Shown in pieces: positions 2,074 to 57,598 of a stretch of DNA of 64,000 bases (the first letter of the stretch is position 1; the number at the start of each line of letters is the position of its first letter). The stretch lies in NCBI GenBank assembly GCA_046329515.1, contig JAXLUM010000003.1, forward strand, positions 9,606 through 73,605, in the 5' to 3' direction. A program made the position numbers and the translations under genes. This DNA comes from Chitinophagales bacterium (GTDB lineage Bacteria > Bacteroidota > Bacteroidia > Chitinophagales > LD1). A model generated the notes under the pieces. That model saw nothing but the letters and a program-made list of their open reading frames with translations. It had not been told where the DNA came from and made no database searches.

Positions 2074-4298
2074 CGGAGCAGTGTAAAGTTGCCTGCCTGC
2101 TTTAATTGCTTTTGTGCACAATAGTTGAAGTATTCTACCTGGTAAATGTATACATCAGTAGGTTGCGGAGCGCTTTTGTAAATGCCGTTCCAACCTTGCG
2201 AAACATCAGTAGTTTCAAATAAGAGATTACCCCAGCGGTTGTAAACCTGCAGGTGATAACGTTGCGCGCCGCAGCGTGAAACGCCGCGATATACATCGTT
2301 CACTCCATCACTATTAGGACTAAATGCTGTGGGCATGTGCAATTGGCATTCATCAGGTAATATCTGCACTAAAATTTCATCGGAAGCGGTGCCACAAGGT
2401 GTAGATACGGTTGCTGAATACGTGCCTGTTTGTGAAACAGTATAAATGCTATCGGTGGAATTGTTCTGCCATTGATAAGTTGCATTTTTAACCGGAATGG
2501 AAAGCAGAACCCGGGCTGCGCCACAAATGGTAGTATCTGCACCGAAGTAGAAAGTAGGATCGCCGGTAAACACTTCTAATGAATCGGCAGCTTTACAAAT
2601 GGCCGTGTCCCAGCTTTGCACCCAGTAATTGCCAACCCGGTTAACTATTATTGATGAAGAAGTTTCGCCTGTGCTCCATAGGTAATTAATGGCACTAACT
2701 GAGGCGTTCAGTGTTAGTGAATCTCCTGTGCAAAGACTTAGATTAGGCCCAAGAACGGGTTGTGGACTGGGTAGCTGAAAAAGATTTATTGTATCGCGCG
2801 CAGTGCCGCATGTCAGATTTATCTGCGCCCAGTATAAGCCCGCGCCATTAACAGTTATTTGACTGCCGTTTGCACCCGTGCTCCATACGGTATTTGCATT
2901 ACCCGAAGATAAAGTGCGGCTAAAATTACCGCAGTAGGCAGTGTCTGCATCTAAAAAAGATTGATTAGGGCTAAAGACGGTTACAATAATTGAGTCTGCT
3001 TTAATACAGCCCGATGAGTTTACCTGAACCCAATAAAAACTCGGGTTAGCGGTTGAAAGTGTAGGGCCGGTGCTTCCATCACTCCATGTGTAAGAAGCGC
3101 AAGGTAAATTTGTATTAAGAGTAACTGTAGAGCCCGGACAAATTACGGTATCGGCACCGAGGTTTACCGTTAAAGAGTTGCAGTTTGAAGATACCACCTT
3201 ATCAGGCAAACCTGCGGCGCTAACCTTGCCGCCTAAATAAAAACCATCGTCTACAAAAGTACAGCCCGTTCCCGCAACGTTAGGGTTATTTATAACGGCA
3301 AGGTAGCTATCAGTGTAAACAGCAATGTATATTTTTCCATCGGGCGCTAACTGCATATACCCGGTTTTATAATTTGCATCGGGCCCGGTAATATTGCCTA
3401 TTAGCTGTGCGGATGCACTTATTGCTGCCTGTGTATAGTTAGAAAGGTCAAATTGGTAAAGGTAATCCTGCAGGTACCAACCCGTTAAATATAGTTTGCT
3501 TCCATCGGGTGAGAACTCCAGCCCCCAGGCGGCTGTATAATTAGGAATAAGTATGGCGTTGGAAAGAGTGCCGGTTGAATTGTCAAAATCAAATAATTCA
3601 AAATTTGAACTTCCGTAACAAGCTGTTGCTACGTGACGGCCATCTGTTGAAACATTTATTTGCCCTAAGGCATTATCTCCATTACCACCGCGCAACTGCC
3701 CAACATTGGAAACTACCGGAGTTGTTTGTAAGCCCTGGCAGGTTATAAGATAGGTATTAAAATTAGTAGAGCTCCATTCATGCGTTATCAACCAAACGTC
3801 CTTGCCATTAGCGTGCATTACAGGTATAACCTGCTCCGATGCGGGGTCTTTAAGCGCAATATTTTTTTGCCCGGAAACAATATCGCCCAGGCCTCCATCT
3901 AGACTCATATCTATTACTGAGTAGCGCAAACCATTGGGCCAGCCAAAGGCCGTCATAGTAACAAGGTAGTATATATTATAGCTACCCGGTTGGCGAATTG
4001 CCGTTGCCGCATGGCCTCCGGATAAATGACCGAATAGCCCGGAACCATTAGGCATTAGTTGATGGTTTCTGTTCCATACTTGTGTACCATCGCAATAAAA
4101 CAGGAGATTGCCGGCTGAATCAGCTACGGAGGCCGGATTGTCCAAAGCATTCATTGCACTATTGGTTACTACGGTCGGTGTACCACTTGTAAAGTCAATT
4201 CCCGCCTGGTTGCCGAAATACCATTTGCTGTATTCAAATTGAGCATTGAGATTGAAGACAACTATAATCCCAAAGAAGATTAGAGTGATGTTTTTCAT
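2070..4298 (-). CDS. Secreted beta-propeller/Ig-repeat protein with T9SS type-B (gliding motility-associated, CHU_C-like) C-terminal domain
   Basis: N-terminal signal peptide (MKNITLIFFGIIVVFNLNAQ). Repeated Cys-containing Ig-like modules. C-terminus reads PTAFSPNSDGVNDVY...GWNG...YIYQV, which is typical of type-B T9SS CTDs. Confidence 0.8.
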   Translation of the reverse strand: MKNITLIFFGIIVVFNLNAQFEYSKWYFGNQAGIDFTSGTPTVVTNSAMNALDNPASVADSAGNLLFYCDGTQVWNRNHQLMPNGSGLFGHLSGGHAATAIRQPGSYNIYYLVTMTAFGWPNGLRYSVIDMSLDGGLGDIVSGQKNIALKDPASEQVIPVMHANGKDVWLITHEWSSTNFNTYLITCQGLQTTPVVSNVGQLRGGNGDNALGQINVSTDGRHVATACYGSSNFELFDFDNSTGTLSNAILIPNYTAAWGLEFSPDGSKLYLTGWYLQDYLYQFDLSNYTQAAISASAQLIGNITGPDANYKTGYMQLAPDGKIYIAVYTDSYLAVINNPNVAGTGCTFVDDGFYLGGKVSAAGLPDKVVSSNCNSLTVNLGADTVICPGSTVTLNTNLPCASYTWSDGSTGPTLSTANPSFYWVQVNSSGCIKADSIIVTVFSPNQSFLDADTAYCGNFSRTLSSGNANTVWSTGANGSQITVNGAGLYWAQINLTCGTARDTINLFQLPSPQPVLGPNLSLCTGDSLTLNASVSAINYLWSTGETSSSIIVNRVGNYWVQSWDTAICKAADSLEVFTGDPTFYFGADTTICGAARVLLSIPVKNATYQWQNNSTDSIYTVSQTGTYSATVSTPCGTASDEILVQILPDECQLHMPTAFSPNSDGVNDVYRGVSRCGAQRYHLQVYNRWGNLLFETTDVSQGWNGIYKSAPQPTDVYIYQVEYFNYCAQKQLKQAGNFTLLR

Positions 4299-4320
4299 AG
4301 ATGTTCCAGGCTAAAAATAA

Positions 4321-5787
4321 CTAATCTCTATGGAAAGGTAAATAGTGGTGGAACTCAGGCAATAAATTCAAGAAATACACCAATGCAATATATACCCCAC
4401 CTAAAACACAGGAACGGAGGATAATATTCAAAATATCAGATTGCAGGTTGGGCAGAAAATAGTTAATGCCTAAACACAGCAATGTTATGCCTATAACTTT
4501 GGCTATAGTGCCGTTATACGGCTGGAATTTAAATTTTCGCCAGATAAGGAATTGCTTAATTGCTGTATAGAGTAATGAAGACAATGCTGTTGACATAGCG
4601 GCCCCGTTGATGCCAAAAGCAGGAACTAAAACCATATTGCTTATAATGGTAATTACTACAAGTGATAAAAGCAGCAGTGCCCCTTGCCAGTGTTTGGAAG
4701 AGTAGAACAGTATGGATGTATTAGCGCCACCCATCATATTTATAAGCGAACCCAGGGAAATAATCCATACCACTTGTACGCCCTGATGAAAATCTTTACC
4801 TACAAGGTTGAGCAGAAAAGTGATGTTGCAGTTAATGCCTACAAAAAGTAGTGCGCCTATGATAGATAAATACTTTACTGATTTGTAGAAAACATCGCGC
4901 ACATCGTTCATGTTATTTTCTACAACAGAGTGTGCCACTTTAGCGGTAACAATTCTATCTAATGCATTAAGCGGAGCTTCAATAAGCGTTGGTATAAACG
5001 CAGCTATAGTATAGATACCGGTGAGGTTCAGGCCTTCAAACTTGGCAACAAAAATAGAGTCGAGCATTTTTAAACCCAGTGCTGCAATAGAAGCCAGCGA
5101 TAACAGCAGGCCGAAGCTTACCATCTCTTTCAGGTTGTTTTGACGATAGAGTTGCCAATCAATAGTAAGCGAGGGTTTATCTTCTTTAAGAAGGTAAATG
5201 ATGAGCAGAAGGAACTGCAAAGCATAAATGCCTACATAAAAGCCAATGAACTGCTTAAAAGAAATTAAACCGAAGTGGTAGCACAGAATTAAAGCGATGT
5301 AGCCAGCGCGGGTGTATATATCATTTAAATAAGAAGGAACTGTTGTTTTGAATAAGGAAATTAAGTAGGTGGTAATTACCGTACTGAAGCCAAGAAACAA
5401 ACTGAAAGGGAAAATGTAATTGTAGTAATCAATAAAGAGCGGTGACTCCTTACGGAATTGCGCAATGACAAATTCCTTGAATACAATTAGGCCTGCAGCG
5501 GAAATAATAAACCCTATAATGGGAAAGATGAGCATGAAGCCGAAAAAGCCGTTGTGCCCGTTCTTTTCATTTCGAAAATGAGGGAAATACTTAATGGTCA
5601 TGTTGGTAGCGCCTATAGGAATGAAACTTGCCACCAGTGTAGAAAAAGCAAAGAGCACACGCGCTAAACCAATTTCTTCAGTGCTTAAAAACTTAGGCTG
5701 AATAATTATAAGGGAAACGAAGCCCAGGATAATTCCGAAGTAGGAACTAATGGTGTTTTTTATGCCCTGCCGTTGTATTACGCCCAT
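4321..5787 (-). CDS. Polysaccharide/oligosaccharide flippase (MOP/Wzx family)
   Basis: 488-aa polytopic membrane protein with many hydrophobic helices. It lies in a glycan gene context, abutting asnB. Confidence 0.7.
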   Translation of the reverse strand: MGVIQRQGIKNTISSYFGIILGFVSLIIIQPKFLSTEEIGLARVLFAFSTLVASFIPIGATNMTIKYFPHFRNEKNGHNGFFGFMLIFPIIGFIISAAGLIVFKEFVIAQFRKESPLFIDYYNYIFPFSLFLGFSTVITTYLISLFKTTVPSYLNDIYTRAGYIALILCYHFGLISFKQFIGFYVGIYALQFLLLIIYLLKEDKPSLTIDWQLYRQNNLKEMVSFGLLLSLASIAALGLKMLDSIFVAKFEGLNLTGIYTIAAFIPTLIEAPLNALDRIVTAKVAHSVVENNMNDVRDVFYKSVKYLSIIGALLFVGINCNITFLLNLVGKDFHQGVQVVWIISLGSLINMMGGANTSILFYSSKHWQGALLLLSLVVITIISNMVLVPAFGINGAAMSTALSSLLYTAIKQFLIWRKFKFQPYNGTIAKVIGITLLCLGINYFLPNLQSDILNIILRSCVLGGVYIALVYFLNLLPEFHHYLPFHRD

Positions 5788-7680
5788 TTACTTCATCCAC
5801 TTATTATACCAAAGCTGAAATAAGAATAAATAGCTGAGGCGTTGAAATTCTATTTTATCGCCGTTTAGGTAACGGTCGCGCATTTTAATAACGCGCTCTA
5901 CATTAAAGATTCCCTGCTTACGTAATGACTCTTCATTTATAACCTGAATTAAGGTATTCTTCAATTCATTTTTTAGCCAGCTTTCAAGAGGTACACCAAA
6001 GCCCATTTTAGGGCGCTCCATTATTTCCTTAGGCACATGCTTATGCACTATTTCTTTAAGCATGTACTTACCTGTGCCATTGCGGTATTTGTAATCTAAA
6101 GGCAGGCGTGCCACAAATTCAATTATGCGTTGGTCAAGGAAAGGCTCGCGGCCCTCGAGGCTGATGCTCATAGTAGCGCGGTCCACCTTCTGCAGAATAT
6201 CATCCACCATGTAGGTTTTGTATTCTGTAGCCTGAAATTTAGAGAGCAGGTCGTTTGTGTCGTTCAATAAAGCGCCTTCTTCAAATGGTGTGTTAATAGG
6301 GGCAATGTCTTTATTGATTAGTTGCTTTGTTTCAGCAAAGGTCATGGCCTGGCTTATAATGTCGAAGCGTTTAACGGGGTCCTGCCCGCTCATGTATTCT
6401 ACCAGCTTGCTCCACTTATTTTGCTCACTTACATCTTTTCGTTTGCCGAATAGCGAAGCCGCACTTGCGGAGGCCGATTGAAAGAACTCCGGAATTTTAT
6501 TCAGTTGCGCTAAACGTTCAACTGCATTAAAATACTTGGGATAACCTGCAAAAATTTCATCACCACCATCGGCAGAAAGAGCTACGGTTACTTTTTTGCG
6601 CGCCATGCGGCTAACCAGTGTGGTTGGTATAGCTGAAGTATCACCAAAAGGTTCATCGTAAATAAAAGGGAGTTGTTCTACTATATCCAGTGCATCCTGG
6701 TAGGTGCAGGTGTGTTCGTGGTGGTCGGTGCCGAGAAAATCAGCTACCTGCCGTGCATGGTGGGCCTCGTTAAACTTAGGGTCGTTAAAACCAATGGTAA
6801 AGGTTTTAATTTTTTGGCTGCTGTTTTTTTGCAGCAGGGCCGTTACGGCTGTGCTGTCGTAGCCACCACTAAGAAATACCCCAACGGGCACATCGGCCAC
6901 CATGCGGTATTGAAAAGCAGAAAGCATTAAGCGTTCTGTTTCCTCTTTTGCTTCTTCGTAGGATATGTTCAGCTTGGGTTGGTTGTAGCAATCCACTACA
7001 TCCCAATATTTCTGCAAGCTGGTTTTTTCTGTTTTTAAATCAACTTCCAGGTAATGTCCGGGAAGCAATTTATAGGTGTTTTGAAAGATGGTATGTGGCG
7101 CCGAGATATATCCCCGTTGAAAGTAAAGGGATAGGGCGTTGAAGTTGATGCTCTTTTCAAAGCGCGGGTGCTCAAAAAATATTTTCAGTTCTGAACCAAA
7201 CAAAACCAAACTGCCTTTTTGATAATAGAACACGGGCTTAACCCCGGCACGGTCGCGAAAAAGGACCAGCTTTTCATTTTTGCTATCATACATGGCAATA
7301 GCAAACATGCCTATGAAGCGGTCAACACATTTTACGCCCCAATGGGCATAGCTTTTTAAAATTACCTCGGTATCGCTGTTAGATTTAAAGGTAAAGCCCG
7401 CCTGTTCCAACTCGGCGCGTATTTCGCGGTAGTTGTAAATTTCTCCGTTAAAAATTACGGTAAGGCCTGCCTCTTCAAAGCGCATGGGTTGGTGGCCTAA
7501 GGGGCTTAATTCTATAATTGAAAGCCTCCTGAACCCCAGCCCTATGTGCGCGGCAGGTGTGTCAAATAATTCATAACCGCTGTCATCGGGGCCGCGGTGC
7601 TGTATGCAGCCTGCCATCCTCTGCAGTTGCTCTAAACTGCCATTCTTCGAAAAATCAATGTACCCTGCAATTCCGCACAT
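5788..7680 (-). CDS. asnB: Asparagine synthase (glutamine-hydrolysing) family amidotransferase
   Basis: N-terminal MCGIAGY Ntn-amidotransferase start. SGGYDS PP-loop (VFLSGGYDSTAV). 630 aa. Confidence 0.9.
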   Translation of the reverse strand: MCGIAGYIDFSKNGSLEQLQRMAGCIQHRGPDDSGYELFDTPAAHIGLGFRRLSIIELSPLGHQPMRFEEAGLTVIFNGEIYNYREIRAELEQAGFTFKSNSDTEVILKSYAHWGVKCVDRFIGMFAIAMYDSKNEKLVLFRDRAGVKPVFYYQKGSLVLFGSELKIFFEHPRFEKSINFNALSLYFQRGYISAPHTIFQNTYKLLPGHYLEVDLKTEKTSLQKYWDVVDCYNQPKLNISYEEAKEETERLMLSAFQYRMVADVPVGVFLSGGYDSTAVTALLQKNSSQKIKTFTIGFNDPKFNEAHHARQVADFLGTDHHEHTCTYQDALDIVEQLPFIYDEPFGDTSAIPTTLVSRMARKKVTVALSADGGDEIFAGYPKYFNAVERLAQLNKIPEFFQSASASAASLFGKRKDVSEQNKWSKLVEYMSGQDPVKRFDIISQAMTFAETKQLINKDIAPINTPFEEGALLNDTNDLLSKFQATEYKTYMVDDILQKVDRATMSISLEGREPFLDQRIIEFVARLPLDYKYRNGTGKYMLKEIVHKHVPKEIMERPKMGFGVPLESWLKNELKNTLIQVINEESLRKQGIFNVERVIKMRDRYLNGDKIEFQRLSYLFLFQLWYNKWMK

Positions 7681-7792
7681 GCCGCTAAAGTAAAAGGATT
7701 ACACTGATTATGAGAGATTACACGGAAAGAGGATAACCAACAGGCTTGGTTAGGGCGGTAAAAAGTGTAATACAGTATGCAGCCAATAATTT

Positions 7793-7800
7793 TACTTTTG
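7793..7800 (+). promoter_or_regulatory. Bacteroidota -7 promoter box (TAnnTTTG) for the methyltransferase/GT operon
   Basis: TACTTTTG sits within aattttacttttgcgg, 10 nt upstream of the ATG at 7811. The context is nearly identical to the box upstream of rpsC. Confidence 0.5.
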
Positions 7801-7810
7801 CGGCCTTATT

Positions 7811-8749
7811 ATGATAGATTTTGTATCGCCCAAAAGCGGGCTTGGCCTGGTAAATACCGGTTCCGACCTTATATCGTCGGAAGGGGAGAAGTTCCCTGTT
7901 GTAAACGGCATACCGCGCTTTGTGCCGGCTGATAACTACGCCAATGCATTCGGCTTTCAATGGAAGAATTTTGCGAAAACGCAATTAGATAGTTTTAACG
8001 GAACCACCATTTCAAAGGACCGCCTGGAACGCTGTTTGGGCTTTCCTATTGAGCAGTTGAAGGGAAAGAACCTGCTGGAAGTAGGCGCCGGTGCCGGCCG
8101 CTTTACCGAGCTTTTGGTAAAGGGTGGCGCTAATGTGCATTCCATTGACTTAAGCGCGGCCGTTGAAGTGAACAAAGAAAACGTTGGTAGCGCCGCTAAC
8201 TACAGCATTGCGCAGGCCAGTGTATATGAGTTGCCTTTTCCTAAAGCAAGCTTTGATATTGTAATGTGTTTAGGTGTTATACAACACACCCCAAGCAGTG
8301 AACAAACCATTGAAGCCTTATGGAACATGGTAAAGCCCGGCGGCTTGTTGGTTATTGACCACTACATTTGGCGCATCAATTATTATTTTAACCCTGCTAC
8401 GTATTGGCGGTTGGTATTAAAGGAAATGAAGCCTGAAACCAGCAAGAAAATTGTGGACGGTTTAACGAATGTGTTTTTCCCTATGCACTGGGCGTTTAGA
8501 AATGCGGCCCCTTTAGATTGGCTGATAAAACGCTTTAGCCCGGTAATGACGTATATGAAACTGCACCCTGAATTGAGCCGTGAAGAACACTACGAATGGG
8601 CGCGTTTGGATAGTTACGATTCGTTAACAGATTACTATAAACACTTGCGCACGCCAGAGCAAATTAAAACGCAATTAGAGAAGTTAGGCGGTAAAAACAT
8701 TTGGATAAATAAAGGTGGTAATGGTGTGGAGGCACGTTGCACAAAGTGA
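7811..8749 (+). CDS. Class I SAM-dependent methyltransferase (with Trm112-like N-terminal segment)
   Basis: Motif I LLEVGAGAGRFTELL. N-terminal FPVVNGIPRFV. Confidence 0.8.
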   Translation: MIDFVSPKSGLGLVNTGSDLISSEGEKFPVVNGIPRFVPADNYANAFGFQWKNFAKTQLDSFNGTTISKDRLERCLGFPIEQLKGKNLLEVGAGAGRFTELLVKGGANVHSIDLSAAVEVNKENVGSAANYSIAQASVYELPFPKASFDIVMCLGVIQHTPSSEQTIEALWNMVKPGGLLVIDHYIWRINYYFNPATYWRLVLKEMKPETSKKIVDGLTNVFFPMHWAFRNAAPLDWLIKRFSPVMTYMKLHPELSREEHYEWARLDSYDSLTDYYKHLRTPEQIKTQLEKLGGKNIWINKGGNGVEARCTK

Positions 8750-8761
8750 TTAATACCCCCT

Positions 8762-8810
8762 GAACAAAGTTTTTCGGAAAACTTTGTTCTCGTCCCCCTG
8801 TTAGGGGGAC
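8762..8810. repeat. Intra-operon double hairpin (REP-like)
   Basis: gaacaaagttttt-cg-gaaaactttgttc forms a 12-bp stem. It is followed by gtccccct-gtt-agggggac. Confidence 0.6.
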
Positions 8811-8833
8811 AAAGGAGGGGAAAAACAAAAGTT

Positions 8834-9541
8834 ATGAGTGAACAAAGCAAACAGGTAGGTGAATATTACGATAAGTTGTGGGATGAGTATGAGCAAACGA
8901 AGCTGAGCAAACCTAACAGTCGCCACCGCACTATTTTTAAAAACCTGAAGAAGGCCGGCCTGCAAAGCAACAGCAGCGTGCTTGAAATAGGTTGCGGTAT
9001 AGGTTCGCTATCAGGCTTAATTATAAACCACCTTAGCAATGGTTTTTTTGTTGGCGCTGATATAAGCTCGCAAACCATTGGGTTTTTAAAGAAGAAATAT
9101 ACCGACCGAAACCGCACTGATTTTGTGGTAACGGATATGACTGATTTTACGTACGGCAAAAAGTTCGACTTCATTATTTTTCCTGATGTGCTGGAACATA
9201 TACCGGTAAGTACGCATCCTTTAATTTTTGCCACGCTTAAAAACCTGGTAAACGAAAACACCGTTATCCTTATAAACAACCCCGAGCCATTGGCTTTGGA
9301 ATGGGTGCATAAACACCGCCCTGATTTATTGCAGATAATTGATCAGCCCCTTCACGTAAATCACTTTGCACAATTAGCTTACGACAATGGTTTTTATATT
9401 GAGAAGGTAGAGCCGTACGCCCTGCATACACAGCAATACGACTACCAGAATATCATCATACGCCCTAAGCGCGAGTTAAAGAGCCTTGACCAAAAAGGAA
9501 AGGGCGATTTGGTGATGGCGAATATTAAAAGTCGTTTGTAG
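8834..9541 (+). CDS. Class I SAM-dependent methyltransferase
   Basis: Motif I VLEIGCGIGSLSG. Post-I acidic residue and the DVLEHI motif. Confidence 0.8.
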   Translation: MSEQSKQVGEYYDKLWDEYEQTKLSKPNSRHRTIFKNLKKAGLQSNSSVLEIGCGIGSLSGLIINHLSNGFFVGADISSQTIGFLKKKYTDRNRTDFVVTDMTDFTYGKKFDFIIFPDVLEHIPVSTHPLIFATLKNLVNENTVILINNPEPLALEWVHKHRPDLLQIIDQPLHVNHFAQLAYDNGFYIEKVEPYALHTQQYDYQNIIIRPKRELKSLDQKGKGDLVMANIKSRL

Positions 9542-9599
9542 CGAAATTCGAAGCACTAATTCCTAAATTCGAAACAATTGCCTGCTTTAAATTGAGGTT

Positions 9600-10655
9600 G
9601 TGCTAAAACCCAAAGTGCTTTTATTTTATAACTACCTGTCCTCTTTTGTAAAGAAGGATGTGGAGATTTTGAATGAAGCCTTTGCGGTACGCAGTCACGA
9701 TTTTTACACGAAGAAGAAAAGCGATACGCCTTTTCGGTTTCTCTCCCAATTCTTTTTTCTGCTGGGTAATATATGGACCGCTAAACTGGTAGTGGTTGAG
9801 TTTGCCGGTTACCACAGTTTGTTGCCCGTGCTGTTTGCAAAGTTGCTGGGCAAAAAGAGTTTGATTATTTCGGGCGGAACGGATGCGCATTACTTTCCGG
9901 GTATTGGTTATGGTAACTGGCAAAAGAAATATCTGCGAACCTTTACGCGCTTAAGTTTTAGTTGGTGCAGCCATATTGCACCCAAGCACAAAACCTTAAT
10001 GCAAAGTTTATATGAGTATGATAAAAGCGAACCTAAAGAACAGGGTATTTACGCGCGCATACCCGGTTTAAAAACGCCTTATACCGAAATACCGAATGGC
10101 TACGATGCGGTAAAGTGGAAATGCACTAAGGCCAAAAAGAAAAACACTTTTATAACCGTAAGCGGTGCCTGGGAATATCCCTTTCAGCAGCAGTTAAAGG
10201 GAATTGATTTGATACTGCAGGTAGCGCCTTCTTTTCCTGATTGTGAGTTTATAATACTTGGTGTGGATGATGTTAGCCGCATAGTAACCGACACGCCCAA
10301 CGTAAAAGTGCTGCCTGCCGTAGCTAACGAAAAACTGGTTGACATTTTCAGCGAATGTGAGTTTTATATGCAGCTAAGTATGGCAGAGGGTTTTCCTAAC
10401 TCTATTTGCGAGGCCATGTTGTGCGAATGTGTGCCTATTGGCTCGGCGGTATTTTCTATACCCGAAATAATAAACGGCAGCGGCTTTGTGTTGCATAAAC
10501 GCGATGCACTGGCGCTGAAAGATGTTATCACCTCTGCCTTAGCCAGCGATAGAGCCGCCTTAGGCAAACAGGCCCGCCAGCGCATTGCCACTAACTACAC
10601 GCACCAAATGCGGAAGGAGAAGTTGTTGGGGGTGTGTGAGGGGTTGGTAGGATAA
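9600..10655 (+). CDS. Glycosyltransferase family 4 (GT-B, GT1 superfamily)
   Basis: C-terminal EGFPNSICEAMLCECVPIGS matches the E(x7)E-type GT4 motif. GTG start. Confidence 0.75.
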   Translation: MLKPKVLLFYNYLSSFVKKDVEILNEAFAVRSHDFYTKKKSDTPFRFLSQFFFLLGNIWTAKLVVVEFAGYHSLLPVLFAKLLGKKSLIISGGTDAHYFPGIGYGNWQKKYLRTFTRLSFSWCSHIAPKHKTLMQSLYEYDKSEPKEQGIYARIPGLKTPYTEIPNGYDAVKWKCTKAKKKNTFITVSGAWEYPFQQQLKGIDLILQVAPSFPDCEFIILGVDDVSRIVTDTPNVKVLPAVANEKLVDIFSECEFYMQLSMAEGFPNSICEAMLCECVPIGSAVFSIPEIINGSGFVLHKRDALALKDVITSALASDRAALGKQARQRIATNYTHQMRKEKLLGVCEGLVG

Positions 10656-10681
10656 ACTCATTTGCCGCTTTACGTAAACGA

Positions 10682-11332
10682 TTATATAACAACTCCATCC
10701 TCAACAAATGATTTCATCTTCCTCCACGTAGCTCTTACTGTTAAAGCAAAAACTACTACATAGCAGTATATAACTATAAAACCAATCCATAAGAAATTTG
10801 GATAACTCCTTACAAAAAAACCAACTCCAAGCATTGCAGGAATCATTACTGCCAATGATATCATTGATAATCGCATTCTTTTAGAGAAAATTTTCATCAT
10901 TAGATGATTCTCCTTACGGTTTTTAGCATGAAAGTACGTGTTTGTAAATGCCAACAATGAAAAAAAGAGTAATACCGTCAATGAAAAAAACCACAAGTTG
11001 GTGTCAATCGTTTTGACCATAAAAACTTCTGAAGAAAACAAGCTAAATAAAACAAGGGCGTCCCGCAAAGTGGGAATCCAAGTAAAGCTGGCTACGACCA
11101 TATAAAAGTCATTCCAAATTAAGATTAACACGAGTAGAACGAATATGGCTTGAGGTAAAACCACCGACAAGTTTGCGTTATTCTCACAAGCATGATGCAC
11201 AACCTCAACCAACATATGAAATGCGACCCCTTGTCCGATACTTAATAAGGTTAGAAATGAATGCGTATGCAATTCTTTCATTCGACCATACGTTTCTTTT
11301 CTTATTCTTTCTTCCTCGTTATGCTGACCCAT
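10682..11332 (-). CDS. Hypothetical polytopic membrane protein (A+T-rich gene)
   Basis: 216-aa ORF with about 6 hydrophobic segments and no recognisable motif. It is visibly more A+T-rich than its neighbours. Confidence 0.5.
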   Translation of the reverse strand: MGQHNEEERIRKETYGRMKELHTHSFLTLLSIGQGVAFHMLVEVVHHACENNANLSVVLPQAIFVLLVLILIWNDFYMVVASFTWIPTLRDALVLFSLFSSEVFMVKTIDTNLWFFSLTVLLFFSLLAFTNTYFHAKNRKENHLMMKIFSKRMRLSMISLAVMIPAMLGVGFFVRSYPNFLWIGFIVIYCYVVVFALTVRATWRKMKSFVEDGVVI

Positions 11333-11454
11333 AGCAGTAGATTACTACGGCAATATCAAACCAGTTCTGAAAATTTGCAATCCCTATTTTCGGGTATTAC
11401 ATGTATACTGAAAGAAAATCGATTCAAATTATTGATGTTATTTTAAACACTGAA

Positions 11455-12444
11455 ATGAACAACACTAAATCCGTTTTGCTTTCCTTTTGTTTTTCGCTGA
11501 TAGTAATATCAGCAAACGCTCAACAGGTATTGTTTGAGTTGCCTTTAAAAGGCATAACGGGTAAGGACTACTGGGTTTCAAATTACATGGACCATGAAGC
11601 GAGCAGTTTGGTTCGCGATGCTTTTTGTGGAGACTTAAGTTATAACGGGCATACGGGCACTGACTTCGCCATACGCAACTTTGCGGCTATGGATAGCGGG
11701 GTGGAGGTTTACGCCGTGACCCCGGGTGTGGTGGTTGACGCACACGACGGCGAATTTGACCGCAACACGGTTTGGAAGAAGGGCGCCATACCCAATAGAG
11801 TAGTTATTAAAGATGCGGATGGATTAGTGACCACTTATCTGCATTTGCGGAAAGGCTCGGTAGCTGTGGCGGTGGGCGATACCGTTAAAGGGGGGCAGGT
11901 GTTGGGCTTGGTGGGGTCATCGGGTGTATCGAGCGGGCCGCATTTGCACCTGGAAGTGCATGATACTACCGGTAAGGTAATTGACCCCTTTAAAGGAAAT
12001 TGTAATACGGGCGCCGGCTTATGGAAGGAGCAACTGCCTTATGATACGGCCTTCTATATAATAGACTATGGCTTTGTGCCCTTTAAACTGGCTGACTATA
12101 GTTCAGAGCGCCCTCCTTATGGCTGGGGCGATACGTTGACCATCGGCCCCAAGGATTTTGTTTCGTTTTGGACAAATGTGCGTGGTGTTAAGCGGGGGCA
12201 GGTTTTTAAAACGGAATGGTATGATACTTATGGCGACCACCTGTTCGGTTTTGAAAACAAGGCGGAACGCAGCAATTGGTTTCACCTGTATTGGAGTTAT
12301 GTGGATTTAGGCGGGCGCGGCATGAGCGGCCGTTGCTGGGTTAAGGTGTTTATTAATGATAAGGAGGTGCTAACGCTGCCTTTCTATATAATAAGGAAGG
12401 CTGAAAGCACGCCTCAAAAGAAAGGAAAGAAGCCCGCGCACTAG
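11455..12444 (+). CDS. M23 family metallopeptidase (secreted)
   Basis: HTGTDFA and GSSGVSSGPHLHLEVH motifs (HxxxD / HxH). Signal peptide follows the ATG at 11455. Confidence 0.85.
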   Translation: MNNTKSVLLSFCFSLIVISANAQQVLFELPLKGITGKDYWVSNYMDHEASSLVRDAFCGDLSYNGHTGTDFAIRNFAAMDSGVEVYAVTPGVVVDAHDGEFDRNTVWKKGAIPNRVVIKDADGLVTTYLHLRKGSVAVAVGDTVKGGQVLGLVGSSGVSSGPHLHLEVHDTTGKVIDPFKGNCNTGAGLWKEQLPYDTAFYIIDYGFVPFKLADYSSERPPYGWGDTLTIGPKDFVSFWTNVRGVKRGQVFKTEWYDTYGDHLFGFENKAERSNWFHLYWSYVDLGGRGMSGRCWVKVFINDKEVLTLPFYIIRKAESTPQKKGKKPAH

Positions 12445-12681
12445 TGCCCTTAATTTTAACAGATAGGGTTGAGATATTGCATTAAAACATTGGTTTTTGG
12501 CGCTTATTGCTGTAAAAAGGCTATTTTTAAGCTGTTAGGAATATGCGGAAACGACCAACAACAGGTATGAAATTTTGGCTACGAACCATTTTTATACCTA
12601 AAACCAACAAGTTATAGCCTATAACTTAATGGTCGCCCTAAAAATTATTCAATTAGGGTTTGTAAAGCTGCACAAGAAATT

Positions 12682-12689
12682 TACTTTTG
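12682..12689 (+). promoter_or_regulatory. Bacteroidota -7 promoter box (TAnnTTTG) upstream of rpsC
   Basis: TACTTTTG sits within aaatttacttttgcag, 64 nt upstream of the rpsC ATG. Confidence 0.5.
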
Positions 12690-12752
12690 CAGTCCCTTTT
12701 TAGGGAGGGGTGTATTTTTATGCCCTTTAAAAACGTAAAAAATAATACCTGA

Positions 12753-13469
12753 ATGGGTCAGAAAACAAGTCCGATAGCTAATCGCCTCGGTATCGTAAGA
12801 GGATGGGAAAGCAACTGGTATGGTGGCAAGGATGCTGCTTCTAAGCTGATTGAAGATGAGAAGATACGCCAGTACCTGAAGGCGCGTATTAACAAAGGCG
12901 GTGTATCGCGCGTGGTAATTGAAAGAACCATGAAGCGTGTAACCGTTACCATTCACACCTCACGCCCGGGTATTATTATTGGCCGTGGCGGTAACGAGGT
13001 TGACCGTATTAAGGAAGAATTAAAGATACTTACCGGTAAGGAAGTTCAAATAAACATAGTAGAAATACGCCGCCCCGAGCTGGAAGCAGCTATTGTAGGT
13101 GAAACTATTGCCAAGCAATTAGAGGCCCGTATTAACTACCGCCGTGCAGTTAAAATGGCTATCGCTTCTGCAATGCGTATGGGCGCCGAAGGTATTAAGG
13201 TGCGCGTAGGCGGCCGTATAGGCGGTGCTGATATTGCCCGTAGCGAAGAATACAAGCAGGGCCGTACTCCACTTCATACCTGGAGAGCGGATATTGACTA
13301 CGCTATTACCGAAGCACAAACCATTTATGGTAAGCTGGGTATTAAAGTGTGGGTTTGCCGTGGTGAAGTTTATGGTAAGAAAGACTTAACCGGTGCCTTT
13401 GCAGGTGAAGAAAAACAGGAAAAGCGCAAACCACGCGGCGATTTCCGTAAGAGAGACAACAAGAAGTAA
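12753..13469 (+). CDS. rpsC: 30S ribosomal protein S3
   Basis: [14 protein letters not shown]...KH domain GRGG...; Lys/Arg-rich C-tail typical of Bacteroidota S3. Confidence 0.97.
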
Positions 13470-53263: not shown

Positions 53264-53286
53264 ACCTTGCACCAAAAGTTTGGGGA
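53264..53286. repeat. Left copy of an imperfect direct repeat bounding the A+T-rich islet
   Basis: accttgcaccaaaagtttgggga versus accttgcatcaaaagtttaggaa at 57438-57460 (20/23 matches). The related string atcaaaagtttaggaaa lies inside the tRNA-Arg gene (57552-57568). Confidence 0.55.
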
Positions 53287-53390
53287 CTTTTAGTAGCCTT
53301 AAGCACTGACTTATCGAACCTTTGGAGTTATATTCAACGGGTTGGTTTATTTTAAGACGTATTTAAAATATGTTTCAATTTATCGTTTCT

Positions 53391-53398
53391 TATATTTG
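53391..53398 (+). promoter_or_regulatory. Candidate -7 box (TAtaTTTG) upstream of the 1287-aa ORF
   Basis: tatatttg, 45 nt upstream of the GTG at 53444. Confidence 0.35.
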
Positions 53399-53443: not shown

Positions 53444-56400
53444 GTGATTTACCTCTTTTTTGATAGCGATGTTTGGTTAAACTCTCTCAAAGAAAGCGGG
53501 GAGGAAGATAACTATATTGATTCATTGGAGTACTGGATTGAAAATGGGCATGTCAAAATACTACTTCCTGAAAACGTAATTGACGAATGGAAAAGAAACC
53601 GAGACAAGAAAAAGGAAACGTTTCTAGAAGATTGGAAATCCTTTTTCAACAGAGCCAAAAAGGTTTTCTCAGGGGATGTGGTAAACAATTTAATGACCCC
53701 TGAGAATCTGAATGAGAGAGTTGAGAAACAGCTCAAAAGAGTTGAAGCAATTTTTGAAAACTACGCTATAAAAATTCCAATCACCAACGATTATAAATTA
53801 AAGGCAATAGAATTAGCTGAACGGAAGAAGGCGCCTTTTGGACAAAAGAACAGCATTGGAGATGCTTATATTTTTGTAAGCATAATCGACTATATTTCAT
53901 CTAACAATCTTTCCGATTGTGTTTTTGTAACCAATAACCACACAGATTTCAGCCACAAAGGTGATTACAGTAAAATTCACCCTGATTTAGAGCCTGAATT
54001 CACTAAACTGCAAATCAGTTATTACATTAATCTCAGAAGATTTTTTCGTGAGTACTCATCTCGTCTTCCAGATGTCTCAGAATACAGAAAGCTCAAAGCT
54101 CGCAAAGAAGAAGATAAAAAACTTGCTAGTGCGGTTTTGGACCCTCAAACACTTGAGAACCTAACAGGACTAAGAGATTCTTACATTGAAAACATTAATC
54201 ACTTAGACCTAATTTTCAAAACCGTCAGTCCAACAAAGGAGCAAGTTCTCTTTGCGCTCGGGTTAGTTGATTCTGATGAAAGTTACAAGCAATACTTTTT
54301 TAAAAAAATTGAAAGTAGTGTTTGGTTTAAAATACTTAAAAGTAGCGGAGAGTTTAATCCCTCAAAGAATCCTGCCCCGATTCAGTTAAATGATGGGATT
54401 CAAGTTCCCCTGTGGGATCCGCTTGTTTACCTTGAAAAGCTTTCATTGCAAATCAAGAATGGACAGTCTCTTGAACTCATTGATGAAATAGTTGCAATCA
54501 TCAATGAAACTTCTCAAAAACCAGTTGACAATTACAAAACCTGGTATTTGTTTATCAAAATATTGGCTAATCTCCCGAAAGAAAAAATTCCAATAGAGAC
54601 ATTGAAATTCATTCCTACATGGTTTAGTGGAAGTTTTGATACAATGATGCAGAGTTCAGAGATATGCGATAATCTACTTCCAAAGTTTCTCTCTGAAAGT
54701 CCAACAACGGATGACATTCAAAAGGCAGAAGTGATTTTAAAATATCTTTTCAGTATTGAGAAAGTTGAAGTTACTGGACAGGGCAGATTAGTGACTGATG
54801 CAGAGAGCTATCACTCGAAAGTTTACATGTATTATTTAACAGATGCTTTAATTGATAAGAAGCTAACGAAAAAAATTGTTGCTTATTGTTCAGATAATAT
54901 CATTATTGAATTAGCAGAAAAAATTAAGACGCTGGGATTTGATTTTCCTGGAGGAATTAACTTTTCACTCAAAATAATAGACAAGAGCTACAGTTGTAAG
55001 GCTGAAATTGTAAATGAGGATTTGATTGTTAAGATTTTAGTGGAAGATGGAAAAATCATTGGAGAAGGAATAATAGAAAAATTTGAAAACCTTACCGACG
55101 AGCAAGTGAAAGCTTACTTAATTGCGCTTCTGGAAAAGTTAGAAGTTGTATATGAAGAGAACGAAGAAAACGAGTGGGAAATACAAATACTTACAAATGC
55201 TTTAGCAAATGGCAATTACCACTTTTCTGACGACGCAATAAGTGAATTAAATTACCGCTCCCATCACGGAGATAAAGTTATTGAAGTGTTTTCTTTAATC
55301 TTTAGGAATCTTCTAAATGATAAAGTACAACAGAATAAGGAAGAGGGGCTTTTGCTTTTAAAAGTTTTTGCCTTTAAGAATAAATACAGGTCGACATTTT
55401 TCCGTAGGGTTATTCTGTTTGTAATTAGAGAGAATTGGGAGGCATGTAGGGGTTTGTTTTGGGAAATTGTTAAAGAGAATGACTCCTTGTCGCTTTTTTC
55501 TGATTATAATTTTTATAAAGACCTGTACGAAATCCTCAATAAGAACCAAATGTTATTGCGCCAAGAAGAAATCTCGACACTTCAAAAGATAATCGATTTA
55601 GGCCCTCGGGATAAAGAAGTTGGAGACCCAAAGTATAAGGACTATTGGCAGTTGCGTTGGTATTCTGCTTTGAGAAATATTGCTCCGTTCAGAAAAAGTT
55701 ATGAAAAGCTTTCACAATCAGAAAACCTGACCAACGAACACTATGAAAATTTGGGTGTGATAAGAACCAGAGTTGGTTCGGTTTCTCCTTTTAGTGTAGA
55801 AGAAATACTTCAAAAAGGTAATCAGGATATTGTCGAATTCATTCATGCGTTCAAACCAAAAGATCGTTGGGAAGAACCAACTATTGACGGACTATCAAGT
55901 TCATTAAGTGCAGCGATCCAAAAGGAACCGCAAAAATTTTCTGATGAAATTGAACTTTACAAGGATGTACCCTACATCTATGCTTACCATATTTCCAATG
56001 GTTTTAGGGAGGCATGGAAAAATAAAAGGTCATTCAATTGGGAAAAGGTTTTGAATTTCTACAAAGAGTATATCTCAAACGAAAAATTTACATCAGATGA
56101 GCTTCGTTTAGAAAATGATGGTTGGGGGGCAACATCAGATTGGGTTTTAGGTTCAGTTGCTAACCTTTTAACTGAAGGGTTGCAATCAGACAATAATGGA
56201 TTTGATTTATCGCTTCTGCCTATTGCAAAATATATTCTTAAAATTATTGTTCCACGGTTAAGGCCAGTGGAAGACTTTAAGCAAACGAATATGGACTATC
56301 CGACCTATTCGCTGAATTCAACAGCCGGTAAAACGCTTAGAGCTTTACTTGATTATTCACTCAGGAGAGCAAGAAACTTAAAAGCAGAAGATAGTTTACC

Positions 56401-57307
56401 CTATTGGGAAAAAGAGATTAAGGCTTTATGGGAAGAAACTTTTAATAAAGGAATAATCGACGGTTACGTTATCAACGGTCGGTATTTCCAGCAATTTTAT
56501 TATTTGGATAAAGAGTGGATAACTAATAAAGTAAAAGAGTATTACAAACTTGAAGATAAGGAGTGGCGTGCTTTTATGAGTGGATTTGCCTTCGGCAATC
56601 CGCCATTTAACAAGGACATTTATCAGTTGTTTTACGCGCACTATGAAAGAGCAATTAAGAACAACATTCAGATAAAAGGTCATTATGGTCACGGTATTAT
56701 TAGACACATTGTTGCTTTTTATTTTTGGGGTTTTGAAGATTTGCAAACGGACGGCTTGCTTACAATGCTTTTCAATGAAGGCGATCATGCTAGTATTCTA
56801 GAAGTTGTAAATTTTGTTTGGAGGCAGGAGAGCTATTTGAATAGTTTGAATGGAGAGGAAGTAAAGAACTTTGAAGAAATAATTTTCAATTTGTGGAACT
56901 ACCTTGTTCAGAAGTATGACAATACAACTAGCGAAGAAGGACATGAGGTTTTAGCTGCACTTTCAAATCTTCTTGTTTTCGTACCTAAGCTAAATGACAC
57001 TTATACGGCTTTAGTTTTGAAGTCAAGCGAGGTTACCGATAAACGGTCTTATTCTCATTATCTTATTGAAAACCTTGTCAAACTTAAAGACCGTGGTGGT
57101 CTAAATGAGTCTGCTAAACATGTTGGAATTATCTTGAACTCAATGCGATTTGCTCCTTACTTTTCCTCCAATGACAAGAAACATATTATTGACTTAGTTG
57201 TATTTCTTTATGAAAATGGACAGAAGCCAATTGCCGATGAATTTTGTAACAAGATGGCAAAGCAGGGCGATGAATTTCTTATTGAGATACATAACAAATA
57301 TAGGTAA
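53444..57307 (+). CDS. 1287-aa protein: N-terminal PIN-like nuclease domain plus about 1080-aa helical region of unknown function
   Basis: GTG start. The N-terminal roughly 200 aa carry PIN signatures (IYLFFDSDVW; ...IGDAYIFVSII...; CVFVTNNHTDFS). In the remainder I recognise no P-loop or other catalytic motif. The gene is A+T-rich relative to its flanks. Confidence 0.7.
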   Translation: MIYLFFDSDVWLNSLKESGEEDNYIDSLEYWIENGHVKILLPENVIDEWKRNRDKKKETFLEDWKSFFNRAKKVFSGDVVNNLMTPENLNERVEKQLKRVEAIFENYAIKIPITNDYKLKAIELAERKKAPFGQKNSIGDAYIFVSIIDYISSNNLSDCVFVTNNHTDFSHKGDYSKIHPDLEPEFTKLQISYYINLRRFFREYSSRLPDVSEYRKLKARKEEDKKLASAVLDPQTLENLTGLRDSYIENINHLDLIFKTVSPTKEQVLFALGLVDSDESYKQYFFKKIESSVWFKILKSSGEFNPSKNPAPIQLNDGIQVPLWDPLVYLEKLSLQIKNGQSLELIDEIVAIINETSQKPVDNYKTWYLFIKILANLPKEKIPIETLKFIPTWFSGSFDTMMQSSEICDNLLPKFLSESPTTDDIQKAEVILKYLFSIEKVEVTGQGRLVTDAESYHSKVYMYYLTDALIDKKLTKKIVAYCSDNIIIELAEKIKTLGFDFPGGINFSLKIIDKSYSCKAEIVNEDLIVKILVEDGKIIGEGIIEKFENLTDEQVKAYLIALLEKLEVVYEENEENEWEIQILTNALANGNYHFSDDAISELNYRSHHGDKVIEVFSLIFRNLLNDKVQQNKEEGLLLLKVFAFKNKYRSTFFRRVILFVIRENWEACRGLFWEIVKENDSLSLFSDYNFYKDLYEILNKNQMLLRQEEISTLQKIIDLGPRDKEVGDPKYKDYWQLRWYSALRNIAPFRKSYEKLSQSENLTNEHYENLGVIRTRVGSVSPFSVEEILQKGNQDIVEFIHAFKPKDRWEEPTIDGLSSSLSAAIQKEPQKFSDEIELYKDVPYIYAYHISNGFREAWKNKRSFNWEKVLNFYKEYISNEKFTSDELRLENDGWGATSDWVLGSVANLLTEGLQSDNNGFDLSLLPIAKYILKIIVPRLRPVEDFKQTNMDYPTYSLNSTAGKTLRALLDYSLRRARNLKAEDSLPYWEKEIKALWEETFNKGIIDGYVINGRYFQQFYYLDKEWITNKVKEYYKLEDKEWRAFMSGFAFGNPPFNKDIYQLFYAHYERAIKNNIQIKGHYGHGIIRHIVAFYFWGFEDLQTDGLLTMLFNEGDHASILEVVNFVWRQESYLNSLNGEEVKNFEEIIFNLWNYLVQKYDNTTSEEGHEVLAALSNLLVFVPKLNDTYTALVLKSSEVTDKRSYSHYLIENLVKLKDRGGLNESAKHVGIILNSMRFAPYFSSNDKKHIIDLVVFLYENGQKPIADEFCNKMAKQGDEFLIEIHNKYR

Positions 57308-57390: not shown

Positions 57391-57476
57391 GTAGCCCCGG
57401 CAGGAATCCCTGCCTGACTGCGTCACGCAGAAAGGAAACCTTGCATCAAAAGTTTAGGAAATACTAGTGCGAGACC
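57391..57476 (-). pseudogene. Degenerate tRNA-Arg(CCU)-derived remnant
   Basis: Minus strand reads GGTCTCG-cactagta-TTTCCTAAACTTT-TGAT-[29-nt hairpin insert]-AGGCAGGGATTCCTGCC-GGGGCT. It parallels the acceptor, anticodon and T arms of the adjacent tRNA but lacks a D arm. Confidence 0.5.
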
Positions 57477-57486
57477 GAGTATTGAG

Positions 57487-57523
57487 AAAAACCAGAGTGA
57501 GAGGCCGCTCTCCCTCTGGTTTT
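57487..57523 (-). terminator. Hairpin terminator immediately 3' of tRNA-Arg
   Basis: aaaaaCCAGAGtGAGAGgccgCTCTCcCTCTGGtttt. Confidence 0.7.
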
Positions 57524-57598
57524 TGGTAGCCCCGAGCAGAATCGAACTGCTATCAAAAGTTTAGGAAACTTCTATTCTATCCGTTGAACTACGGGACC
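57524..57598 (-). tRNA. tRNA-Arg (anticodon CCU), CCA encoded
   Basis: Hand-folded cloverleaf: GGTCCCG TA GTTC AACGGATA GAAT A GAAGT TTCCTAA ACTTT TGAT AGCAG TTCGATT CTGCT CGGGGCT A CCA. 75 nt; the acceptor stem has two G-U pairs. Confidence 0.85.

Follow-up and report, generated by a model that had tools for sequence, protein, structure and literature searches.

The 64,000-nucleotide (nt) stretch of Chitinophagales bacterium DNA analysed here (assembly GCA_046329515.1, contig JAXLUM010000003.1, positions 9,606 to 73,605; the window) contains an intact open reading frame (ORF) of 1287 codons that begins with GTG and has no internal stop codon. The gene is real and intact. An identical public protein (P0001), from a metagenome-assembled genome (MAG), is annotated as 'PIN domain-containing protein [Chitinophagales bacterium]', and the start codon is supported because homologues open with MIYL.FDS at the same position. 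An earlier reading of the sequence alone (the original prediction) had described a large PIN-like fusion protein of 1287 amino acids (aa), encoded by a solitary gene in an A+T-rich islet beside a tRNA gene, and each of these points was confirmed. The ORF has a G+C content of 0.352 compared with 0.440 in the remainder of the window, the neighbouring tRNA is tRNA-Arg(CCT), and the flanking intergenic regions hold no ORF longer than 43 aa and thus no antitoxin-sized partner. The protein consists of an N-terminal PIN_12 nuclease domain, a helical linker, and a long alpha-solenoid body related by sequence to the sensor of the antiphage protein Dsr1 (Table 1).

The N-terminus matches the full Pfam PIN_12 profile (PF16289, formerly DUF4935) over aa 4-169 (E = 3.7e-19, 70.2 bits with a cut-off of 32), in agreement with the DUF4935-class assignment made originally. 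The three acidic motifs named at that time are present in order, with D7 in FFDSDVW, D140 in IGDAYIF and D168 in NNHTDFS, and E48 in IDEWKRN completes the tetrad. These four residues and N165 are invariant among 22 and among 39 PIN-bearing homologues, down to 30% identity, and the domain looks catalytically competent. An AlphaFold model based on the homologue alignment (predicted local distance difference test, pLDDT, 81.6; predicted template-modelling score, pTM, 0.74) has an alternating strand-helix pattern in which strand 2 is followed by a long helical insert. An insert of exactly this kind is described for DUF4935 by Matelska et al. 2017 (PMC5499597), who assign the family to the VapC group. 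Comparison of the model with the PDB by Foldseek placed VapC PIN toxins on top (probability 1.0, target-normalised template-modelling score (TM-score) 0.54-0.64). The N-terminus thus models as a PIN fold with the acidic tetrad. No function is assigned to DUF4935 in the literature found, including PMC5499597.

We identified the rest of the protein by profile searches. The PADLOC Dsr1 model PDLC04166 matches the protein with E = 2.8e-111, aa 263-496 aligning to profile positions 304-538 and aa 643-1286 to positions 593-1224. Because only profile positions 304-1224 are covered, the match excludes the SIR2 part of Dsr1; nothing aligns to positions 1-303, and the N-terminal 252 aa have no similarity to the profile. 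The homologue search also returned three relatives that carry Pfam SIR2_2 (P0064, P0065 and P0113), and these SIR2-bearing proteins match PDLC04166 from end to end (P0064, 1135 bits; P0065, 1686 bits). By BLASTP, aa 241-419 and aa 597-1283 of the query align to the post-SIR2 part of P0064 (E = 1e-55). An hhalign comparison of 22 PIN-bearing proteins with the three SIR2-bearing proteins extends over 936 columns (probability 100%, E = 2e-92) and begins right after each effector. The sensor body alone, searched by tblastn, matches 'SIR2 family protein' genes on 116 Bacillus plasmids with 99% coverage and 26.6% identity (E = 1e-77), and one of these targets, the 1331-aa protein of B. mycoides p419, is itself a PADLOC Dsr1 (E = 6.5e-159). 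By these sequence comparisons, homology to the post-SIR2 sensor of Dsr1 spans the terminal ~1050 aa from end to end. The architecture, first reported as not recognised, is a Dsr1 sensor with PIN_12 in the place of SIR2.

The helical-repeat character originally proposed for the C-terminal part is borne out by an AlphaFold model, an alpha-solenoid with one small four-stranded beta-sheet (pLDDT 89.2, pTM 0.66). Foldseek with this model returned only generic HEAT/ARM solenoids (CAND1, importins; TM-score at most 0.28), which are not diagnostic, and sequence and profile searches of the PDB gave zero matches, whether started from the query, from a profile of the sensor or from a genuine Dsr1 relative. 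The Dsr1 family assignment therefore rests on sequence profiles and not on structure. The C-terminus had also been described as free of known motifs. This was correct for the motif scan, which found no Walker A, DEAD or HEPN motif in the protein, and for Pfam and NCBIfam, which gave no match in this part, but not for PADLOC, as described above. NCBIfam gave zero matches to the whole protein, no NTPase family was matched in Pfam, NCBIfam or PADLOC, and Pfam found no SIR2 domain, aa 4-169 being occupied by PIN_12.

Conservation varies along the protein. The linker region (aa 206-240) has a conservation of 0.485 compared with a whole-protein mean of 0.63, and in the model of the PIN domain pLDDT falls below 60 past about aa 220. 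The sensor insert at about aa 496-595, composed of the four-stranded beta-sheet (aa 505-544; residues 265-304 of the sensor model) and helices, is also among the least conserved regions (0.512). At the other extreme, the C-terminal helix carries a motif in which C1268, N1269 and F1278 are invariant within the PIN clade, and in which A1024, C1028, N1029 and F1038 (body numbering) are near-invariant over all effector types. This conservation suggests that the motif is a candidate element of a common switch, and we conjecture a parallel with the C-terminal helix whose conservation was pointed out for Avs7.

Table 1. Features of the locus (window coordinates) and of split gene pairs at homologue loci (coordinates of each locus)
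Feature	Position	Strand	Basis or detail
Imperfect 31-nt direct repeat, left copy	53264..53294	+	Right copy at 57438-57468
Candidate Bacteroidota-type -7 box, TATATTTG	53391-53398	+	TAnnTTTG consensus match only
Complete ORF, predicted PIN_12 nuclease fused to Dsr1-type sensor	53444..57307	+	1287 aa, GTG start
PIN_12 (PF16289/DUF4935) nuclease domain, aa 1-207	53444..54064	+	Pfam, AlphaFold model, Foldseek
D7 codon	53462-53464	+	Catalytic tetrad
E48 codon	53585-53587	+	Catalytic tetrad
D140 codon	53861-53863	+	Catalytic tetrad
D168 codon	53945-53947	+	Catalytic tetrad
Helical linker, aa 208-240	54065..54163	+	Least conserved segment, low-confidence model
Dsr1-type alpha-solenoid sensor body, aa 241-1287	54164..57304	+	PADLOC, BLASTP, hhalign, tblastn, AlphaFold
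Clade-specific sensor insert, ~aa 496-595	54929..55228	+	Gap in hhalign alignment
Conserved C-terminal helix motif A..FCNK....G.EFL..I..KY, aa 1260-1287	57221..57304	+	Homologue alignments
Decayed tRNA-like remnant, holding right repeat copy	57391..57468	+	Similarity to tRNA-Arg
Hairpin between gene and tRNA, 17-bp arms	57487..57524		Inverted repeat, 94% complementary
tRNA-Arg(CCT)	57524..57598	-	ARAGORN; Rfam tRNA, 58.9 bits
L007 split pair	PIN_12 7100-8014 / sensor 8001-11003		Overlap 14 nt
L008 split pair	PIN_12 7105-8001 / sensor 8001-11015		Overlap 1 nt
L016 split pair	PIN_12 4100-5014 / sensor 5001-8006		Overlap 14 nt
L017 split pair	PIN_12 4103-5014 / sensor 5001-7961		Overlap 14 nt
L018 split SIR2 pair (also L019)	SIR2_2 4151-5008 / sensor 5001-8228		Overlap 8 nt

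In an exhaustive search with a profile of the sensor alone, the sensor family comprised 3,891 clusters at 50% identity with E ≤ 1e-3, of which 1,333 have E ≤ 1e-30. We collected 254 sensor-bearing proteins, a sample biased towards the neighbourhood of the query, and categorised them by the module that precedes the sensor. No module (fewer than 60 aa before the sensor) was found in 137 proteins and PIN_12 in 84; the others carry TIR (n = 13), SIR2 (n = 7), one of two unannotated types (n = 8 together) or an unclassified N-terminus (n = 5). The PIN_12-bearing proteins are cluster representatives at 90% or 50% identity, and 53 of the 84 came from the first two homologue searches. The protein can thus no longer be called an orphan, as it was in the original prediction.

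The sensor-only proteins that we checked are halves of two-gene systems and not truncations. Most representatives of the ~1000-aa sensor-only clade begin at exactly the same residue (M.WF.FLK), and at every split PIN locus examined a PIN_12 gene of 298-304 aa lies upstream and overlaps the sensor gene. The overlap is a conserved 14 nt at L007, L016 and L017 and 1 nt in the three Elizabethkingia meningoseptica assemblies (L008-L010). When encoded separately, the PIN protein aligns colinearly with aa 1-289 of the fused protein, and one fused form (P0090) is nested inside the split clade. Dsr1 also occurs in split form, with a 285-aa SIR2_2 gene at L018 preceding the sensor-only protein P0060 (1075 aa). 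Because both PIN_12 and SIR2 occur as split overlapping genes, they occupy equivalent positions on the sensor, and this positional equivalence is the strongest argument that PIN is the effector of the system.

The two unannotated N-terminal types, on which Pfam finds nothing, are candidate new effectors. One is a module of ~220 aa (P0039, P0045 and P0229) that resembles PD-(D/E)xK nucleases by eye only (GLDIYS...IQCK). The other is a module of ~185 aa (P0066, P0111, P0184 and P0158) with conserved HAAREIDGG.RD and H..AHR.G motifs.

Like Dsr1 (Gao et al. 2020; Garb et al. 2022; PDLC04166), the protein is a single large polypeptide with an N-terminal effector and a helical sensor of ~950-1050 aa, and both share the N-lobe motifs WF..LK..G.F.P and LLPKFL and the C-terminal helix motif. 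It differs in its effector, a PIN_12 nuclease and not a SIR2 NADase, in its predicted output, nucleic-acid cleavage and not NAD+ depletion, and in its host range, which among the homologues collected is centred on Bacteroidota and not on Bacillus or E. coli. Strict identity with Dsr1 is ruled out, the defining SIR2 domain being absent, and NAD+ depletion would not be expected of a protein that lacks SIR2 and TIR. DSR1 shields B. subtilis from phage phi29, with transient NAD+ depletion (Garb et al. preprint). It is also described as activating its N-terminal SIR2 once its C-terminal domain detects phage, and phage NAD+-reconstitution pathways overcome it.

Lee et al. (PMC12803255, bioRxiv January 2026; PMC13581612, Nature July 2026) report that the sensor of Avs7 is common to Dsr1 and to other proteins without a STAND NTPase, the latter carrying NADase, nuclease or kinase effectors (PMC13581612). 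They describe a common bilobed repeat sensor that binds the phage major capsid protein, which alone triggered SeAvs7 as well as EcDsr1, and show that effector mutations abolish toxicity and defence (PMC13581612). Once capsid protein is bound by SeAvs7, the two lobes of its sensor clamp by ~30 Å and a sequestered nuclease is freed (PMC13581612). The protein in the window is like Avs7 (PDB 9N00, 9N01 and 9YIX; PMC13581612) in its exchangeable N-terminal effector, which in SeAvs7 is the nuclease Cap4. Unlike Avs7, it has no STAND NTPase and no Walker A. A STAND/Avs identity is ruled out, no P-loop being present, and the nucleotide-exchange-driven tetramerisation of Avs7 cannot apply as described. 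Lee et al. 2026 also describe proteins that carry the Avs7/Dsr1 sensor and lack a STAND NTPase; in the present protein, too, an N-terminal effector is present and the NTPase domain absent. The protein probably fits this class, to which Lee et al. 2026 devote one sentence, as a carrier with a nuclease effector. The word 'PIN' is absent from the main texts of both versions (PMC12803255, PMC13581612), and our literature search found no paper that joins Dsr1 with a PIN domain.

The effector itself resembles stand-alone PIN_12/DUF4935 proteins and VapC toxins in its VapC-group fold, its four acidic residues and its helical insert after strand 2. Typical DUF4935 proteins are monocistronic and ~350 aa long (PMC5499597), unlike the present PIN domain and its relatives, which are fused to or translationally coupled with a 1000-aa sensor. 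A VapBC toxin-antitoxin module is ruled out: VapC toxins are paired with an antitoxin, no flanking ORF here exceeds 43 aa, and the protein has 1287 aa compared with ~130 aa for a PIN toxin. The toxin-system alternative of the original prediction is accordingly unsupported. A further analogy is offered by DSR2, a SIR2 domain with an alpha-solenoid sensor of the phage tail tube protein; as in the arrangement proposed here, an N-terminal effector is restrained by a large C-terminal solenoid that binds a phage structural protein. DSR2 gave no sequence or structural match in PADLOC, the PDB or Foldseek and belongs to a different sensor family.

Based on the homology of the sensor to that of Dsr1 and the intact PIN tetrad, we consider it likely that the gene encodes a single-polypeptide antiphage sensor-effector built like Dsr1, with a metal-dependent nuclease of the PIN_12 family where Dsr1 has its SIR2 NADase. 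The single-gene sensor-plus-nuclease defence role put forward originally is thus the best reading. By analogy with EcDsr1 and SeAvs7, the helical sensor would keep the PIN nuclease inactive in the uninfected cell. The cleft of the sensor would bind a phage protein, for which the major capsid protein is the foremost candidate; the lobes would then clamp and release autoinhibition, probably with oligomerisation, so that the PIN active site is exposed or assembled. The activated nuclease would cut nucleic acid, RNA being a likelier substrate than DNA because of the VapC-group affinity, and the infection would abort, with either phage replication or the infected cell arrested.

Several findings weigh against this interpretation. 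The Foldseek E-values of the PIN model are modest (~3e-3), which we attribute to the helical insert, and PDB and Foldseek searches gave no match to SeAvs7, whose structures (9N00, 9N01, 9YIX) are either absent from the searched set or too distant. The neighbours of the gene in the window are housekeeping genes, namely folE (GTP cyclohydrolase I), an ABC transporter, an outer-membrane beta-barrel protein and methionyl-tRNA synthetase, with a DUF2092 protein and an esterase in addition; no integrase is present in the window, and two fused homologues (L004 and L005) have no obvious defence neighbours. The sensor is only ~26% identical to those of SIR2-bearing Dsr1 proteins, and the ~100-aa insert of the PIN clade is missing from the SIR2-bearing relatives in the hhalign alignment. 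Because of this distance and the clade's own insert, the trigger specificity of Dsr1 cannot be confidently transferred. For the same reasons we place the major capsid protein as trigger of the PIN clade below the defence role itself, as a tentative proposal.

An alternative is that architecture and defence role are as described and the sensor responds to something else, such as another conserved protein of the phage, a structure in its nucleic acid or a disturbance of the host, with the insert conferring a new specificity. The sequence distance from Dsr1 and the poorly conserved, beta-containing insert point in this direction, as does the recognition of 13 different phage proteins by different Avs sensors (Lee et al. 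2026, PMC13581612). Both assayed carriers of the sensor, SeAvs7 and EcDsr1, nevertheless respond to the major capsid protein despite different effectors, and the present sensor is colinear with that of Dsr1 over the 936 aligned columns, so that we regard a different trigger as doubtful. The broader proposition that the PIN_12-sensor proteins, fused and translationally coupled, form an uncharacterised antiphage family, in the present sample mostly from Bacteroidota, with a PIN RNase or DNase output, in which the insert has retargeted the sensor away from the capsid protein, seems rather unlikely in this full form.

By sequence, the protein is an effector-swapped Dsr1 relative with fused and split forms; it is no orphan, and its architecture is not categorically new. 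Earlier work has already described this sensor class as modular, which makes the practical gain modest and the finding unsurprising to specialists. Dsr1 is nevertheless among the less understood single-gene defence systems, and its sensor was tied to phage capsid recognition only in 2026. The fused and split forms with PIN and SIR2 provide a natural set of constructs for studying how an NTPase-less sensor may control chemically unrelated effectors in cis and in trans. If the broader proposition above is correct, the split forms would mean that this sensor class can control its effector in trans without a STAND NTPase. A PIN output would likewise be insensitive to phage NAD+-reconstitution counter-defences such as NARP1, and evasion of these pathways offers a rationale for the effector swap. 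Bacteroidota genes annotated 'PIN domain-containing protein' or 'hypothetical protein' become recognisable as candidates for Dsr1-like defence.

The gene family moves between unrelated loci that are often rich in defence, toxin or integrase genes, and the context differs at every homologue locus examined. Among the fused homologues, L002 and L003 lie in an island with integrases, RadC, SSB, SoFic (PADLOC E = 1.7e-119) and IS66 next to ftsZ, L006 adjoins HEPN, an integrase, HigB and SymE, and L004 and L005 are surrounded by ordinary metabolic or cell-envelope genes. Among the split pairs, L007 lies with a type II restriction-modification methyltransferase that has a nicking-endonuclease-like part, an HNH protein, a UvrD-like protein and an rve integrase; L008-L010 with SymE, PIN_8, PLD and HerA/NurA-like genes; L016 with HEPN_RiboL-PSP; L017 with an AAA_15/AAA_21 ATPase and a faint CHAT match; and the SIR2 pair at L018 with a MazE antitoxin/PIN pair and UvrD. 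A search of viral contigs gave no relatives.

This distribution bears on two further explanations. PIN domains of the VapC type are classical toxins, and homologues lie amid integrases, IS66 and the toxin-antitoxin genes SymE, HigB and MazE/PIN, as would be expected of a selfish toxin or addiction module in which PIN stabilises a mobile element or serves competition between elements and no phage is sensed. We consider such a module improbable: a partner ORF of antitoxin size is lacking, four-fifths of the protein belong to a sensor whose homologue is proven to detect phage, and the gene persists in a window without mobile-element genes. The ordinary neighbours in the window and at L004 and L005, together with Foldseek matches to eukaryotic HEAT-repeat scaffolds, would instead suit a Bacteroidota housekeeping protein for RNA processing or scaffolding, whose helical-repeat platform places a PIN RNase on a cellular substrate. 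A core gene would not be expected to have low G+C, a flanking repeat, a patchy distribution and effectors swapped for SIR2 or TIR, nor to change context from locus to locus; the gene is also missing from three related genomes that retain the upstream folE-ABC-DUF2092 block. A housekeeping role is, in our judgement, highly improbable.

The preferred reading, a Dsr1-type defence protein, would be carried by a solitary, horizontally acquired 4.2-kilobase (kb) cassette inserted beside tRNA-Arg(CCT). The tRNA lies 216 nt downstream of the gene on the opposite strand, with its 3' end towards the gene. The two copies of the 31-nt direct repeat, the only ones in the whole window, agree at 25 of 31 positions, compared with a maximum of 21 in 300 shuffles. 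The right copy lies within a tRNA-like remnant in which positions 57445-57461 are identical to 57552-57568 of the tRNA (17 nt, anticodon arm) and positions 57391-57408 resemble 57526-57543; neither ARAGORN nor Rfam calls this remnant a tRNA. Low G+C, flanking repeat and tRNA together fit an old site-specific insertion of the 4.2-kb cassette. The three related genomes that lack the gene keep the upstream four-gene block, also lack the tRNA, and differ in downstream synteny, and none of them shows a clean empty site. In a related Chitinophaga MAG (L011), a 1454-aa ORF (8639-13003, minus strand) lies downstream of the conserved folE-ABC-DUF2092 block.

At the two unrelated loci L002 (1245-6691, fused) and L016 (9001-12021, split) the system directly adjoins ftsA-ftsZ, which points to the region downstream of the Bacteroidota cell-division cluster as a possible hot spot for integration. 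In Elizabethkingia meningoseptica (L008 5792-11803; also L009 and L010), the PIN_12 and sensor pair is tightly enclosed between an upstream 430-aa PIN_8 gene and a downstream 262-aa PLDc_2 gene, and these four genes, three of them for nucleases, may form one operon. Close to them at these three loci are SymE toxins and a PIN_8-HerA(DUF87)-NurA cluster.

We also searched for homologues of the PIN domain alone, which returned three short proteins. One of these, P0115, lies at a low-coverage contig end and is probably an assembly or frameshift artefact. A 73%-identical homologue (P0006) on a 4.3-kb contig is labelled Candidatus Heimdallarchaeota archaeon and is probably a mis-binned bacterial contig and not an archaeal occurrence.

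The strong hairpin between the gene and the tRNA provides terminator-like sites on both strands. A scan for sigma-70 promoters gave nothing above chance, as expected for Bacteroidota. The -7 box candidate noted in the original prediction is present as a consensus match only, 46 nt upstream of the start codon. The TAnnTTTG consensus is strongly depleted in the whole window (48 matches, where shuffles predict 82 ± 8.5), a depletion that would fit selection against spurious promoters.

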